NCBI GenBank assembly: GCA_019118725.1
Contig: DWYO01000326.1
Location: 1 to 35,506 of the forward strand
Reading direction: 5' to 3'
From: Candidatus Parabacteroides intestinavium
Lineage (GTDB): Bacteria > Bacteroidota > Bacteroidia > Bacteroidales > Tannerellaceae
DNA: 35,506 nt
Shown here: positions 14,310 to 20,799 of the stretch, piece by piece
How positions within the stretch are numbered: position 1 is the first letter of the stretch
Layout of the letters: each line of letters starts with the position of its first letter
Program-made: the position numbers and the translations under genes
Notes under the pieces: generated by a model
Databases searched by the model: none
Told to the model about the DNA's origin: nothing
What the model saw: the letters and a program-made list of their open reading frames with translations, nothing else

Positions 14310-17300
14310 TTACTTCACTGCAACCTTGAAGCTTTCGCCATCAACCGATACCACTACGATACCAGCCGGAGCAGCGATAGTCTCATTGTCAGAGTTCAGT
14401 ACTTCGTTAGCTACAACCTTACCTAAGATCGTGCTTACTACTACGTTCTTGCCTTCTGCACCCTTAACGATTACAGCACCGTCAGTTGCTACCACTGAAA
14501 CAGCTGTGTTAGCAGAGATTTCTTCGTTTGCGGTAGGTACATAGTTGGTATCTACGTTGTAAACGTCAGCTTGAGAAGCGTATTCGAAATCATCAGCTAC
14601 GATTACCGGAACGCCATTCTGGACTTTCAGCCAGCCGCCTTTAACCATCGGACGTTCGCCACCGGCAAATGCATCGTTATTCTTCCAAGATTCAGATTCA
14701 ATCAAGAAGTTCTGAGCCGGATCATCGTTGATTAAGCGGAATTCGAACTTAGCCGGATTGTGCTTGTTCTCATCGAATGCTACGGTGTCTTCACCGATAA
14801 TCAAGGTCGTATACTGGCCTTCACCCGGCATAGTTCCTTCCGGTTTAACGGCAAAGCCTTTCAAGAATGCCAAACGTGTGTACTTGTTTTCCCACAAGTT
14901 GTTTTCGTTCAGCTTATCATCGATCTTCAAGTTAACCAAGAATTCACCTACCAAAGTATCCGGAATAACTGTAGTATGCGGGCAAGCCAACGAATCAGCC
15001 AATGCTTCGTGTTCTTCACCACACCAGTCAACAGAACCAGCTTTTTCAGTTACATTGCGTGCAATGAAGTACTGTGGCATCAATACACCTTCTTCAGTTG
15101 TCGGAATAACTGTCAATTCAGCTGCTGTACCTGCATTATCACCCTTGCCTTCAACAGCCAAGAAGGTCATGCCTTTCTCTGCCGCACCGGCATACAAGTA
15201 TTCTTTCTCAGTAGAAGAAGTACGATAGAACTTCATATTGTAGTTCTCGCCCAGTTCTTCAGCTGTGAACTCACGATAGTAACGAGTTGTATCAGCAATC
15301 AGAGCAAATGCAGATGTACGGGTTTCGGCTGTGATATCTTCAGCCTTAATCAAACCTGTTGCGTCAACTACACCGGCTTTCTTGTCGCCCTGAACATAAA
15401 CATCTACATATTTGCCATCAACCAATTTTACTTGTTGATCTACTTCTATCAATGCATAGTAGTGTGCATCGTTTGCGTCATTTACTTCTTTCAGATAGAA
15501 GAGAGATGCTGTTTGCGGTTCTGCAACTACCATCATTTCTGTACCACCAACATTGGATACTTGTACAAACTTATTCTTCAATGCAAGTTTATTCGGATCG
15601 TTTACGTTGATAGTATAGATACCACGTTTCAATGTATCTGTACCGTAAGGCAAACCATATTTCTCAATAGCAACACGATTCAGCTCGAACTTAACTGCAT
15701 CACCATTGGTTACTGCTAATACGGTATCGTTAGCAATAGTATTGTCACCAACTGTTACATTCAAATTGCCGCCTACATTCAGGTAGTTCAGTGTAAACAA
15801 TTCACGTACATCTGGTTCAACTGCATAATACCCTAATGTGGTAGATGGTGCAGGTGTTAATGTGTAGTTTTCGAGGATATTTGCTCCTTGATAGTTAAAC
15901 GATACACGAATAACAGTTTCTCCAGCTTCATTTGTAGTTACGGTATAATTGCCGTTATTCAAACGATTACCGGTTTCCTGATTGTAAATATTAGGAATAC
16001 CTCCAAATTCTGTCGGTTTTGTATCAACAACCCACTTAGCTGCTGGCATGTGAGCAAATGCCATTTTAGCAGTGTCGGCCGGAGCAATCAATGTCAAGTC
16101 ACCATCCAGGTCAACCATTAAGCGAGCATTGTTGCGCTGAGAATCTTTCGATGCTTCAACATCCATATAATACAATCCGCTTTCTGCATATTGCGGAGCT
16201 TTATAGGTAATGTTGAATCCGATACGATCGTTGATTGTGTAAAGGTTTGTCCCTTTCAGATTTTCTGAATTACCGATAGTTACATCCCGTTGATTACCTA
16301 AAACGTCTACCTTAACTAAATTGCGCTCGTAACCTGGAACATAAGAAGAACGCCAAGAAATTTCACTATCTGTACGATCTGCCCACCATTTTGTTGTTAC
16401 GTTTTTACGATTGAAACCATCAGCTTCAATGCGCAATGAGTCTTGAGTCGGATAATACAAGAAGCGGAAGTTGAAACGTCCGTTGATATCACGAGCATTC
16501 ATCGGATTGGCTGCATCTTCGAAGTCTTTATCATGTTTAGCCAAAGCGAATGCCAAATTCTGATCTCCTGCATTATCAGTTACATAAGCTGTATCAACCA
16601 TCAAATAGCGTCCGTCTTCTGCTTGCAATGATAACCAATGTGGAGTTTTTTCTTTCTCCAGCTTGTTGCAGAAACGATACCAATTATCATAAATATTGAA
16701 TGTCCAAGCTTCATAACTTCTTGCACGGAGCATTGCATAATAAGCTCTTGTGTTTGCAACTTCTGAGTCAGCTATAGAAACATTAATATCCTCTAATTGG
16801 CCATATAATTCAAGATTTTTATTGGTCAAATCTACAACTTTTGCCAAGTTCTCGTCTTTAACCGCTTCAGCTTTTGCTAATTCTCCTTCCCAATATTCTC
16901 TTTGTTTCTGCAATTCTGCTAAATCAGCAGAATGAGAAGTTTGAACTTTTTGGGCTTCTTTTATTTGGTAATAAATTTGATGAGCCTCATTTAAGAATTC
17001 ATTTGCTTTATTACCGGCATCTTGGGCCTCTGCATCCTTTTCTGTAATAAGATCTGTTTGAGCCTTTATTTCTGCATTGGCGGCAGTTTCAGCATTTTTT
17101 GCTTCTGTTATTTCGTTATATAATGTAGTAATTGCAATGTTGGATGTTGCACCACCATCAAATGAAATAGTTTCAGAACCATGATTTGCTGCACTTAATT
17201 CTTTTAAAAAGTCAATAAGTTTTTGTACATCTTCGTCTGTATAACCCGCAAAAAGAACGTCCATTGAGGCTGCATTTGCGTCATTTTCGAACCATGTAAT

Positions 17301-18638
17301 GAAAGCGTCAACAGAATTGCTGGTTGTTCCATTCCACATCGTTGACATTGCAGATTGAACATCCTTGTCTGTAATCATAGAACGAATGAATCGTTTCTCT
17401 TCCTTAATAGCATTCTGTTTGTCAGCTTCAGTGTTGAGTTCTTTTATTTTCTGCTCGGCCTCTCCTATTTCAATAAACAAATCTTCCATCATTTGCGCAT
17501 AGTGCATATACAGAGCATTTTTCCCCGCATAGTCTTTTTGCAAATTTTCGATTTTTTCCTTATCTTCATCTGAAATGTCAGAATAAGAATTAATCTGTTC
17601 TGTCAAACTTTGAATATGCTGATTATGAGCTGGAATTACTTCAAAAATACTCCAAGAATATTCACTCTTGGCTTCAACTAAATTGGCTTGATTGTCTACG
17701 ATGGCTTGCTCTACCTTGTTTTTTTCTTTGTAGAAATTTCCCACAATTTCATTCTGCGTGTAGAATGCATCTGTTGCAGCAACTTTTCTTTCTTGAGCTT
17801 TATTCCAAGCAGCTTTTGCTTCATCTCTTTGAGCTACTGCATCGTTGTATTCTCCATAAGACAATGTATTCTTACCAACTGGATTAACAGCTCTATATGG
17901 AGTTTCATCCCATAAGTTTGCAGATGTTGTACCTTGTTCGAAAGTCAATTCAAACTTATCGCGCAACTCATCGTTGGTCTGCAACATGCTGTTCAAATCG
18001 TGTCTGTTCAGCCATACCGGACCGGCAACAACCGGTTTAATACGCAAGTCGCTGACTTTGGACTGAACGTCTTTTGTTGCATACTTAACAGCAGCAACTG
18101 AACCGTCAGCCAGCGGTATCATTGTCATAACGGAGTCTGTTGTGATATAGGCTTCCGGAGTTCTTGCGATAGCTAAATTAGAGCCACTCTCACTACGCAT
18201 CCAAGACCAAGCTGCGGCATTACCACCTAAAAGTGAACCGGTGAAATTACCTTTTAAATAATCTTGTGCCTTAGCCGGATCAAAAGACAAAGGCAAATTG
18301 TAAGCTAAGTTTACAAATTTGAACGCTACACCGTTTTCGTTGTTTGACTTAACTTGTTCAACAAACCACAATGATTCGCCTAAATCTGCTTGATAATAAG
18401 GAACTAATTTTAGACGATAATTAGTTACACCTTCGCCAGTCCGGAATTTTTCCATTACCAATACATGGCGACCATCAGACAGCTGATAAGCACGACCATC
18501 AGTTACTTTGTCTACTGTTTCCCAAAAAGCAGGAGCAGATGCTTTACTGACATCTTCAGCCCAAGTCTGAGCAGAAACAGTATTCAATGAACCTGCGAGC
18601 AGGAAGCCCGCACAAAGCGTAAGTACTTTTTTGTTCAT
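14310..18638 (-). CDS. Large DUF6383-type surface (S-layer-like) glycoprotein with coiled-coil insert
   Basis: MNKK signal peptide; C-terminal PTANEEI..VSVVATDGAVIVKGAEGKNVVVSTILG..PAGIVVVSVDGESFKVAVK domain; NLWENKYTRLAF and WLKVQNGVPV family motifs; ten D(S/T)(A/L/V/T) sequons. Confidence 0.85.
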   Translation of the reverse strand: MNKKVLTLCAGFLLAGSLNTVSAQTWAEDVSKASAPAFWETVDKVTDGRAYQLSDGRHVLVMEKFRTGEGVTNYRLKLVPYYQADLGESLWFVEQVKSNNENGVAFKFVNLAYNLPLSFDPAKAQDYLKGNFTGSLLGGNAAAWSWMRSESGSNLAIARTPEAYITTDSVMTMIPLADGSVAAVKYATKDVQSKVSDLRIKPVVAGPVWLNRHDLNSMLQTNDELRDKFELTFEQGTTSANLWDETPYRAVNPVGKNTLSYGEYNDAVAQRDEAKAAWNKAQERKVAATDAFYTQNEIVGNFYKEKNKVEQAIVDNQANLVEAKSEYSWSIFEVIPAHNQHIQSLTEQINSYSDISDEDKEKIENLQKDYAGKNALYMHYAQMMEDLFIEIGEAEQKIKELNTEADKQNAIKEEKRFIRSMITDKDVQSAMSTMWNGTTSNSVDAFITWFENDANAASMDVLFAGYTDEDVQKLIDFLKELSAANHGSETISFDGGATSNIAITTLYNEITEAKNAETAANAEIKAQTDLITEKDAEAQDAGNKANEFLNEAHQIYYQIKEAQKVQTSHSADLAELQKQREYWEGELAKAEAVKDENLAKVVDLTNKNLELYGQLEDINVSIADSEVANTRAYYAMLRARSYEAWTFNIYDNWYRFCNKLEKEKTPHWLSLQAEDGRYLMVDTAYVTDNAGDQNLAFALAKHDKDFEDAANPMNARDINGRFNFRFLYYPTQDSLRIEADGFNRKNVTTKWWADRTDSEISWRSSYVPGYERNLVKVDVLGNQRDVTIGNSENLKGTNLYTINDRIGFNITYKAPQYAESGLYYMDVEASKDSQRNNARLMVDLDGDLTLIAPADTAKMAFAHMPAAKWVVDTKPTEFGGIPNIYNQETGNRLNNGNYTVTTNEAGETVIRVSFNYQGANILENYTLTPAPSTTLGYYAVEPDVRELFTLNYLNVGGNLNVTVGDNTIANDTVLAVTNGDAVKFELNRVAIEKYGLPYGTDTLKRGIYTINVNDPNKLALKNKFVQVSNVGGTEMMVVAEPQTASLFYLKEVNDANDAHYYALIEVDQQVKLVDGKYVDVYVQGDKKAGVVDATGLIKAEDITAETRTSAFALIADTTRYYREFTAEELGENYNMKFYRTSSTEKEYLYAGAAEKGMTFLAVEGKGDNAGTAAELTVIPTTEEGVLMPQYFIARNVTEKAGSVDWCGEEHEALADSLACPHTTVIPDTLVGEFLVNLKIDDKLNENNLWENKYTRLAFLKGFAVKPEGTMPGEGQYTTLIIGEDTVAFDENKHNPAKFEFRLINDDPAQNFLIESESWKNNDAFAGGERPMVKGGWLKVQNGVPVIVADDFEYASQADVYNVDTNYVPTANEEISANTAVSVVATDGAVIVKGAEGKNVVVSTILGKVVANEVLNSDNETIAAPAGIVVVSVDGESFKVAVK

Positions 18639-19022
18639 AACTTGAAAATTTAATTGTTAATAAAATGATAAATAGTTAACTTCTACTTCTACAATCAATT
18701 TCACGAAGAGTTGAAACAACTCCCCGCGCAGTTATGAACAAGCATAAAAAAAACGCGGGCTCATTGTCTATTACTTAACCGGAGGTTCTGGAAAAACCCG
18801 TCAAACAATAATAGAACAAAGCCCGCGCTTGTACGGTATAACACAGTTCACCTATATTTCTATAGGCAACCTCACATAGTCCATACCAAGCGCAAGCATT
18901 TACTGTCCATTATTCCGTTTGACTAAAAATTTTCCAGATTTCCGATCAGGAATAATCTTCGTAAAATGCTTACAATAAATATATAGATTCCCAAAACACG
19001 AAACGCTATTCGTTGCGGAATC
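18631..19022 (-). promoter_or_regulatory. Long structured 5' leader; putative attenuator / translational switch
   Basis: Hairpins at 18986-19022, 18894-18971, 18825-18893 and 18754-18827 plus U8 (18746-18753); complementary loops; 12-bp inverted repeat covering the start codon. Confidence 0.75.
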
Positions 19023-19026
19023 ACTG

Positions 19027-19057: not shown

Positions 19058-19100
19058 AAAAAAGGGATAATTTTTTCCAAATATAGGGGTTTTCTATACG

Positions 19101-19136
19101 AAAGGCATAGATTTGTGGGTCGAAATCTATGCCTTT
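19101..19136 (-). terminator. Intrinsic terminator after the glycosidase gene
   Basis: Perfect 14-bp arms AAAGGCATAGATTT / AAATCTATGCCTTT, 31 bp past the stop. Confidence 0.75.
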
Positions 19137-19167
19137 GCTTTAGGTAAAGAACCGAAACGTATATCCT

Positions 19168-20799
19168 CTATTTTTGGAAGATTTCCGGATAACGCTGGAT
19201 AAAATAGATTGGCGTGCAGCTCCATGCATGGCAATAGCTGTTTATGGGCGCAAAGTTGTAAGGGGAAAGGAAATCGTCCTTCGGATCATAAGCTTCCCAG
19301 AAAGTATCGGCCCCTTTCTTGACCATACCTCCCCAATAGTCGATAAGAAGTTGACGCGCTTCCGCTTTCATCTCGCATTGAATCATCGCCTCTACCAGAT
19401 AATGATAGGCGTAGGGAGTACCGGGATAGACCGCATCGGGCATTGCCATCACCTGCTTCAGGGCTTTCTGGCCCTCTGCCGGAGAAATCACGCTCCCTAA
19501 AATCATCCAGATTTGGGACATATATGAAACCTGTTTGTCGGGACCGCTCACAAAATAGCCCTTCTTCTGGTCATAGAGCTGTTTTCGGGCCGCTTTCTTG
19601 ATCTGCTTGGCAAGAGCCGGCCACTCTTTCGCTTCATCCTCTTTGCCTAAAAGTTGCGCCAGTTCGTAGCTTTTGTTTAGGGCGAAGACAAATAATCCCT
19701 GCATCGGGGCGTAGGTGTTTAACCCGGCACGCCAATCGAAGAAGAGCCACAGGGGTGTTTTCTTTTGTGGATTATACAGGTGAGTCTCATCGATATAGTT
19801 GGCTGCCAGCTTGATTTGGTTCACAACGACCGGCCAGAGATCCAGAGCAGTCTCCTTATCTCCCGTAGATTTCAAGTATTCCAGCAGGGCTACATTATAC
19901 AATAAGCTATAATCCTGGCAGATCGTCCCATATTGAGGATGAGGGGTCGGCTTCTCGAATACATTCGCATGCAGTTGCCCGTCTTCTGCGGCTAATGCGG
20001 CCAACAGGTACAAGCACCGCTTGGTCAAATCGAACTGCTTAAAAGATTGGGCATTCGCGATAGACTCCAGATATAAGTCTCCGATCCATAGGCGCTGATC
20101 CCGTTTCGGGCCGTCCTCATATACCGTTTGCATACATTCCCGCAACGTCTCGATGCTTACCCGGTTTATATCCCGGATAATGGCCGGGGTTGTTTCCGCC
20201 AGTTCTATTTGTACTTCCGGAGCCGACGAGAGAGCCGTAAAATAGGTGTCAGACATTGCGAACTGGAATCCCGGCGAGTCTCCCAACACTTCGATTTTCA
20301 CATACCGGCAGGCCAGACGCCGTTCGATGGTTACGGGTTTGTCTATGTAGGGCAAGGTGATGATTTCATCCTGCAACCAGGCTCTTCCCAAACCACCCGG
20401 GTAGGGGTCGAATGGGGTATTCAACTCGACCGGCATTTCCGCGAAGGTGAATTTGATACGCACCGGCGCATCTTGTGCCCGTTCCAGGGTAGAGAGCGTA
20501 AACGTATAATAACCGGTTATATGTTTGCCGAAATCGAGGATGTAAGAATCACCTCGTTTTAGAGGTGTTTTGTAAAAAGCATCCAGTCCGGGGATGTTTT
20601 CCATACGCCAGTCCTGGTAGGCATTCGGATCGGCTACCGATTTAACCAGACTTACAGGGCGTATTATCGTTTCATGCAACTGGGGCGTTGCCGCTTCGGC
20701 CTTTTTCAGCCATTCTTGGCGTTGGGTCTGATAAACATCCGCCCACACCAGGCTGCTTGCGCATAAAAGTCCGACAAGGAGAAGAGCTATCTTTTTCAT
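19168..20799 (-). CDS. Exported GH78-like (alpha-L-rhamnosidase-related) six-hairpin glycosidase
   Basis: Signal peptide; ILDFG, DGPKRDQRLWIGD, FFDW, GADTFWE and SYCHAWS motifs. Confidence 0.85.
   Translation of the reverse strand: MKKIALLLVGLLCASSLVWADVYQTQRQEWLKKAEAATPQLHETIIRPVSLVKSVADPNAYQDWRMENIPGLDAFYKTPLKRGDSYILDFGKHITGYYTFTLSTLERAQDAPVRIKFTFAEMPVELNTPFDPYPGGLGRAWLQDEIITLPYIDKPVTIERRLACRYVKIEVLGDSPGFQFAMSDTYFTALSSAPEVQIELAETTPAIIRDINRVSIETLRECMQTVYEDGPKRDQRLWIGDLYLESIANAQSFKQFDLTKRCLYLLAALAAEDGQLHANVFEKPTPHPQYGTICQDYSLLYNVALLEYLKSTGDKETALDLWPVVVNQIKLAANYIDETHLYNPQKKTPLWLFFDWRAGLNTYAPMQGLFVFALNKSYELAQLLGKEDEAKEWPALAKQIKKAARKQLYDQKKGYFVSGPDKQVSYMSQIWMILGSVISPAEGQKALKQVMAMPDAVYPGTPYAYHYLVEAMIQCEMKAEARQLLIDYWGGMVKKGADTFWEAYDPKDDFLSPYNFAPINSYCHAWSCTPIYFIQRYPEIFQK

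Follow-up and report, generated by a model that had tools for sequence, protein, structure and literature searches.

A conserved leader RNA of Parabacteroides DUF6383 genes with a predicted two-state attenuator and a likely second lock on the start codon

In a leader of about 390 nt that is conserved and multi-copy across Parabacteroides, a strand complementary to the start codon (the anti-start) is likely a second lock, on translation, under the control of a transcription attenuator predicted to have two states. This reading comes from comparison of homologous sequences and from constrained folding. We regard the anti-start and its relay, taken alone, as quite probable; the whole package, in which the attenuator, the anti-start as second lock and a co-transcriptional race in cis as trigger would work together, we regard as only a shade better than even.

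The leader family and its anti-start strand

The window analysed here is the whole 35,506-nt stretch of contig DWYO01000326.1 (GCA_019118725.1) of Candidatus Parabacteroides intestinavium. Its leader precedes a gene whose protein has a C-terminal DUF6383 as sole Pfam match and an N-terminus that is signal-peptide-like as judged by eye; the product is likely a surface protein. Named relatives come nearly throughout from Parabacteroides, where they form a paralogue family. In P. distasonis, a DUF6383 protein of unknown function has been linked to survival in alcohol-associated hepatitis (PMC13733255), and S-layer glycoproteins are controlled by DNA inversion, that is, by phase variation of invertible promoters (PMC8400631). 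DUF6383 proteins may be these S-layer glycoproteins. Gene, anti-start and promoter lie as follows:

14310..18638, minus strand: gene, ATG at 18638-18636, product of 1442 aa
18631..18642, minus strand: start-codon region, target of the anti-start
18730..18741, minus strand: anti-start, conserved core 18739-18732
18986..19022, minus strand: P1 hairpin with a conserved AG-N-G loop
19027..19057, minus strand: putative Bacteroidetes-type promoter, TAnnTTTG box 19034-19027, TTG box about 20 nt upstream

TAnnTTTG with an upstream TTG is the consensus of Bacteroidetes-type promoters, and transcription is predicted to start near 19023. Just beyond this promoter, at 19094-19143, lies a 21-nt inverted repeat; it probably terminates transcription of the upstream GH78 rhamnosidase-like gene (19168-20799) and shields the leader's promoter. 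The AG-N-G loop of P1 is kept across the leader family, has no clear partner and is possibly a protein-binding site.

Of 61 genomes searched at the DNA level, 29 matched the leader, each at most 14 times, and full-length matches came from the same genus only. From 80 fetched loci we kept 60 with a full leader and an MNK/MDK-type start, setting aside 8 without such a start and 12 that matched near the ATG only. Together with the window this gave a comparison set of 61 leaders from 15 genomes, delimited by the TAnnTTTG box, which lies 371-510 nt before the ATG and has an upstream TTG in all 61. Leader counts include kin, and related copies are not independent. Alignment A1 holds 51 of the 61 leaders, the long variants being left out; the loop, bar2, outer relay and H4 pairings (defined below) were counted motif-anchored, since MAFFT misaligned these registers. 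A second leader copy in the genome of the window, cut by a contig end, has by eye a different matched code and the anti-start core. By these comparisons the leader is a real, conserved RNA element.

The original prediction started from an exact inverted repeat, and 18631-18642 and 18730-18741 are indeed perfect reverse complements, with 87 nt between the arms and, as claimed, the ATG of this minus-strand gene (18638-18636) within one of them. Because the gene lies on the minus strand, it is the transcript segment UUGUUCAUAACU (18741-18730) that pairs with AGUUAUGAACAA (18642-18631). A perfect complement of at least 12 nt over the ATG was found for 2 of 1259 ORFs of this genome, one of at least 10 nt for 6 and one of at least 8 nt for 23 (ORFs of at least 250 aa, first Met as start, complement within 150 nt upstream). 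The 12-nt repeat is not due to chance.

Close homologues keep the anti-start, whose absence from them would have counted against the prediction: an 8-nt core, GUUCAUAA, occurs at no more than one mismatch in 50 of the 61 leaders from 15 genomes (missing at this threshold in 11), and the core was present in 17 of 18 further leaders fetched later, many of them from one clade. Among the 50 core-bearing leaders, the pairs from +6 to -2 form in 47-50, position -3 is paired in 43 (UA 33, CG 4, AU 4, GU/UG 2) and position -4 in 38 (CG 26, UA 4, GC 2, GU/UG 6). Since +7 and +8 are paired in only 15 and 13 of the 50, the perfect 12 bp are a property of this copy; the conserved unit, as far as the aligned sequences tell, is the 8-bp core with its 5′ flank.

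Cognate anti-start duplexes averaged -11.1 kcal/mol against -9.3 kcal/mol when permuted, a difference matched by 0 of 10000 global permutations and by 107 of 10000 within genomes. On A1, 95% of the anti-start helix cells are paired, with 17 double changes against 4.2 after shuffling (0/500), and slid registers pair at 25-48%. The bias towards G-U over A-C in the helix (+6 to -4) is weak, at 12 vs 8. As to co-variation with the first codons of paralogues, the flank does track positions -3 and -4, but the tree-based test counts only 3-6 independent pairs (sign test p 0.25-1). Selection of loci by the C-terminus of the protein yielded 67, of which 48 had gene and leader and some repeated earlier loci. 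Where the module was present (38 genes), the mean start duplex was -12.2 kcal/mol, with the exact core in 16 and the core at no more than one mismatch in only 22; where it was absent (10 DUF6383 genes), the mean was -4.5 kcal/mol and the core was found in 0 of 10.

The module made of hairpins H2 and H3 was also sought more widely. A sequence-only model of the H2-H3 core matched 77 of 151 genomes of the taxonomic family and 28 of 151 of the order, the matches outside the genus being weak; a strict pattern found the module in 2 of 401 genomes and was too strict, judging from the profile search. Modules also stand ahead of dynamin-family, leucine-rich-repeat and other genes, where a relay helix is often visible and a strong anti-start mostly absent. 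The anti-start is, on this comparison, a feature of the DUF6383 subfamily and not of the whole module family.

Several module copies are arranged differently. The genome of the window has three more distant modules (L172, L173 and L174, on contigs C302, C275 and C16), the first with a 9-bp match to the start of the following 195-aa gene. Tandem H2-H3 modules with different codes and a promoter-like box each occur at L181 (850-1570, minus strand), L182 (620-1330) and L183; those at L181 precede a dynamin-family gene, and a divergent WYL-domain gene is present. In genome G018 (L180 / L089), two tandem modules have no surface-protein gene behind them, and the next gene, about 400 nt on, is that for DNA polymerase III alpha.

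Two exclusive folds and the relay to the AUG

Judging by the paired changes that keep each of them, the leader can form two exclusive sets of helices. Their parts in this copy are:

18892..18973, minus strand: H2 hairpin of the OFF fold, loop CUGGAAA 18937-18931, bar2 18948-18941, bar1 18923-18917
18825..18893, minus strand: middle hairpin between H2 and H3, its base competing with the H3 5′ arm
18745..18828, minus strand: H3, predicted intrinsic terminator, U8 tract 18752-18745, loop UUUCCAG 18794-18788, bar1 partner 18806-18800, bar2 partner 18783-18776
18723..18759, minus strand: predicted relay hairpin of the ON state, masking the anti-start, 18759-18754 with 18728-18723 and inner stem 18747-18743 with 18736-18732
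18702..18727, minus strand: H4 hairpin of the OFF fold, holding CGCGGG and leaving the anti-start free
18698..18709, minus strand: 3′ strand of the closing helix of the ON state, pairing with 18967-18956
18650..18698, minus strand: H6, an AU-rich hairpin that shortens the distance from anti-start to start codon

The code segments (apical loop, bar1 and bar2) could be parsed in 60 of the 61 leaders. The 7-nt apical loops of H2 and H3 are Watson-Crick complementary at 415 of 420 positions, and the interior-loop segments bar1 and bar2 of the two hairpins are complementary at 411/420 and 468/480; the code segments hold 31 G-U and 2 A-C, and the H2 stem 22 G-U and 0 A-C. Non-cognate bar1/bar2 segments of the same genome are paired at about 60%. 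Double changes occur in all 7 bar1 columns, and the apical loops vary, with 9 types in 60 leaders. The RNAalifold consensus of 36 modules is a four-way junction in which both apical hairpins are kept, much as in the extended kissing complex that the antisense RNA of plasmid R1 forms. A simple terminator scan did not list H3.

Computed energies at the U tract differ little between the terminator fold (OFF) and the antiterminator fold (ON): the pair of values is -88.7 and -88.8 kcal/mol for this copy, and over 47 leaders ON minus OFF was -3.3 ± 5.2 kcal/mol (-0.7 for the window). The computed folds are exclusive, as in pT181-type attenuators. Read-contig depths from 8 runs mix paralogues and strains, and DNA runs have the same shape.

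The elements named for the relay are present on the transcript strand, CCCGCG (18759-18754) facing CGCGGG (18728-18723) and UUAUG (18747-18743) facing CAUAA (18736-18732). The inner stem has 222 Watson-Crick, 14 GU and 0 AC pairs in 255 cells. For the outer helix, 21 of the 61 leaders have CCCGCG/CGCGGG without any change; at the best nearby sites 334 of 366 cells are paired, a count that the choice of sites biases upward, and there are few double changes. A third ON helix had been missed: the released H2 5′ arm (18967-18956) pairs with 18709-18698 and removes H4. This closing helix is 94.5% paired, with double changes in 4 of 11 pairs.

Under constrained folding, 46 of 47 leaders behaved as predicted, opening of the start region costing more in OFF than in ON; the mean cost over the 47 was 7.9 kcal/mol OFF vs 3.0 kcal/mol ON, and that of the window 10.2 vs 4.4 kcal/mol. 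The claim of a direct relay fared less well in this copy, where equilibrium in ON still favours the anti-start helix (-127.6 vs -124.2 kcal/mol for the relay; P(anti-start:AUG) 0.99). Until the AUG is transcribed, the relay is the most favourable fold; leaving it means crossing an estimated barrier of 16.2 kcal/mol, against 5.4 kcal/mol in OFF. Because the anti-start helix is the more stable and the barrier is about 16 kcal/mol, the relay would be a kinetic window in this copy, and the open-AUG fold is, in these models, metastable only. The predicted relay has good support from comparison and folding models: anti-start, relay helix and inner stem are kept in homologues with G-U or compensatory changes. 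The original prediction lacked the closing helix, and the anti-start appears to be a second lock behind the intrinsic terminator rather than the main switch.

The anti-start could also act in both states, independently of the attenuator, so that a brief period of translation would end when the AUG is buried. Such behaviour would suit the minimum-energy fold of this copy, which is ON plus anti-start, and the 16 of 47 leaders in which P(anti-start:AUG) exceeds 0.5 in the ON fold. However, the ON fold keeps P below 0.5 at equilibrium in 31 of the 47, conservation with G-U changes is seen in the masking stems, the barrier out of the relay fold is about 16 vs about 5 kcal/mol in OFF, and a second anti-start likewise lies on a strand masked in ON. 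We give independent action of the anti-start a slim chance.

The second anti-start, of up to 13-14 bp, occurs in one clade at the closing-helix site (equivalent to 18698..18709), where the H2 5′ arm masks it, a mask that differs from that of the first. Of 26 hand-picked leaders, 19 scored below -9 kcal/mol for a second anti-start, although one or more of these pattern matches were to the first site; in the first set the count was 0 of 49. In L209 and L227 the H2 5′ arm changes along with it. L078 has an extra terminator and then a relocated anti-start; L079, L080, L083, L086 and L090 have a second terminator-like hairpin and no relocated anti-start, and L097, with a different gene, has its own 11-bp start match.

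Could CAUAA be kept merely to pair with UUAUG at the end of the U tract, its resemblance to the start context being chance? UUAUG does occur at both sites, conservation of the inner stem is high, and modules in front of other genes commonly have a relay helix but no clear anti-start. Against this, the GUU that lies beyond the inner stem is conserved, matching +4 to +6; the flank changes with -3/-4; and relocated and second anti-starts arose elsewhere. An origin as by-product is very improbable.

We favour the anti-start as a second lock behind the attenuator, working in the following way. H2 would fold first, and its apical loop would kiss the loop of the growing H3. If pairing spreads to both interior-loop segments before the H3 stem closes, no terminator would form (ON); the freed H3 3′ arm would then pair with CGCGGG, a stem with the U tract would hide CAUAA, and the freed H2 5′ arm would close the fold, leaving the AUG open as it emerges. 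Should the H3 stem close before that (OFF), transcription would mostly end at the U tract, and in any RNA that reads through the AUG would soon be buried. Structure in the start region lowers translation in Bacteroidetes (PMC3155529, PMC6847099). The choice would most likely be a co-transcriptional race run anew by each transcript and set by elongation speed and the near-equal energies, and the share of transcripts that express a given paralogue would be small and tuned separately for each.

Trigger of the switch and DNA inversion

With the same folds and the same relay, the choice might instead be set by a trans factor: an RNA of the leader's own code (e.g. a terminated leader), a protein at the P1 loop or an elongation factor. 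The layout of apical and interior loops matches that of plasmid antisense/target pairs (PMC10724649), and the P1 loop is conserved without an evident partner. Between same-genome paralogues (57 pairs), bar1/bar2 differ at about 0.5 of positions over a background of 0.09, which exceeds the divergence of every unpaired region (0.13-0.28). The H2-H3 duplex is worth -26.7 kcal/mol when cognate vs -11.2 kcal/mol with a same-genome non-cognate partner, and no two paralogues of one genome have the same combined code.

Against a trans factor, the pairing loop is variable, unlike a ligand pocket. An antisense TAnnTTTG box, the one promoter type scanned for, was found opposite none of the 61 leaders; it was absent from 57 of the 61 loci, and the matches in the other 4 all lie in the coding region. 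The within-genome spread of codes was not above that of clade-matched permutations (P 0.76 and 0.94), which leaves selection for orthogonal codes unsupported. Gene conversion that evens the flanks, together with purging of one-sided conversion of a long-range helix, would also yield high code divergence; chimeric copies with mismatched halves exist, and shielding from gene conversion explains this divergence equally well as trans action. We hold a trans factor to be possible but distinctly less probable than the race in cis.

One form of it, in which three-part codes are private and terminated leaders or their cut fragments act in trans only on transcripts being made from their own locus, is doubtful. 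If true, a private trans code joined to the terminator and the anti-AUG lock would switch surface proteins ON and OFF heritably, locus by locus, with neither DNA inversion nor a protein regulator, and so match by RNA alone what invertible promoters do at sister loci.

The 12-bp repeat could also be a DNA inversion site that flips 18643-18729. It is perfectly inverted, other DUF6383 paralogues of the genus have reversed promoter boxes between inverted repeats, and inversion is the means by which P. distasonis S-layer glycoproteins are controlled (PMC8400631). Yet the repeat does not enclose the promoter box, the segment has one orientation throughout the 61 leaders (these having been found by similarity to that orientation), most homologues have only 8-10 matched bases, and the leader helices show G-U and almost no A-C. 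A scan of reads for the inversion had been proposed; in the contigs of 8 runs, where rare inversions would be missed, no strand-change joint was found, and two skip joints with 27-nt sides are probably paralogues. Inversion of 18643-18729 is unlikely, indeed so improbable that we give it next to no weight against a lock formed in the RNA.

Sister loci differ in this respect. L103, L105, L106, L107 and L109 have a reversed TAnnTTTG box between inverted repeats (repeats seen by eye), about 190-260 nt upstream of the ATG, and are likely invertible promoters in the OFF orientation. With reversed boxes between inverted repeats at these other DUF6383 loci, both systems appear to be in use in the genus. 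Paralogues of the DUF6383 family that lack the module were seen at L099, L108 and L110 and on contig C7 of the window's own genome; the first three have short leaders with the promoter box 130-160 nt upstream. The short-leader paralogues are a third regulatory class.

In genome G534, extra leader copies without a gene lie about 700-760 nt upstream of the gene-linked leader (L176-L179); the non-coding stretch of about 400-500 nt that comes after them is shared. By eye, three of the upstream copies have an altered promoter box, and two of these have mismatched H2/H3 halves; the halves are matched in 4/4 gene-linked copies and in the single upstream copy with an intact promoter. This pattern fits selection on the transcript together with recombination between paralogues.

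Meaning and comparison with known systems

If the preferred reading is true, the leader would be a natural dual transcription/translation switch that acts directly on the AUG in a phylum without Shine-Dalgarno pairing. In gut Parabacteroides it stands ahead of the genes for a large, likely surface-exposed protein, as many as about 14 paralogues in one genome, and offers a possible answer to how species that use it vary or ration DUF6383 proteins without promoter inversion. Its dozens of natural, mutually non-matching hairpin pairs are potential regulatory parts for Bacteroidales.

Rfam gave no match at the gathering score in the window and none at E 0.05 in 20 related loci. EGFOA-assoc-1 RNA (RF02970) was rejected: it scored 19.8 bits vs a gathering threshold of 224.5 and on the opposite strand, five true members had no match to model R1 at E 1, and no H2 partner was seen in L198. 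The FopS paralogous sRNAs of Bacteroides, which have a single-stranded seed and one terminator hairpin (PMC11697453), differ in architecture, and there was no Rfam match. Membership of the guanidine-IV class was set aside for want of an Rfam match and because the loops are variable. An inverton was dismissed on the promoter outside the repeat, the single orientation in 61 leaders and the lack of a joint in 8 contig sets. A leader-peptide attenuator was likewise rejected: the ORF from a conserved upstream ATG runs for 4-200 aa with scattered stops, and no conserved short ORF is placed to control the terminator. The literature searched gave no description of the leader, and a term search in text passages of PMC5737381, whose supplement describes 224 motifs, gave no matches.

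Among known systems, the pT181 attenuator is similar in that kissing starts the choice between terminator and antiterminator and that OFF also blocks translation of read-through RNA (PMC5435934). In pT181 (PMC5435934), however, a separate antisense RNA turns expression off, whereas here the partner hairpin is in cis and its pairing is predicted to be ON; the pT181 terminator hides the Shine-Dalgarno sequence, whereas here a separate anti-AUG strand would be reached through relay helices. The guanidine-IV riboswitch (GGAM-1) is likewise an ON switch whose first hairpin is proposed to kiss the terminator loop in cis, but it needs guanidine and highly conserved loop nucleotides and precedes sugE-type genes (PMC7736828). 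Unlike it, the leader described here has variable loops, pairs in two further segments and is about 390 nt long.

Control of rep in I-complex plasmids uses leader-peptide coupling. The leader differs in having no conserved leader peptide or antisense promoter among the sequences compared. The I-complex systems share with it apical kissing followed by interior-loop pairing, with specificity coded in the sequence, and in them (stem-loop I, pseudoknot, RNAI/Inc) intramolecular loop pairing turns translation on (PMC10724649). They serve plasmid copy control with a separate antisense gene (PMC10724649), whereas the leader is chromosomal and multi-copy. The invertible promoters of the P. distasonis S-layer also provide locus-specific control of large surface-protein paralogues (PMC8400631), but that system flips DNA, which is unlikely for the leader. 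From its conserved pairings and computed folds, the leader would work like a dual-control attenuator that stands outside the pT181, guanidine-IV and leader-peptide families.
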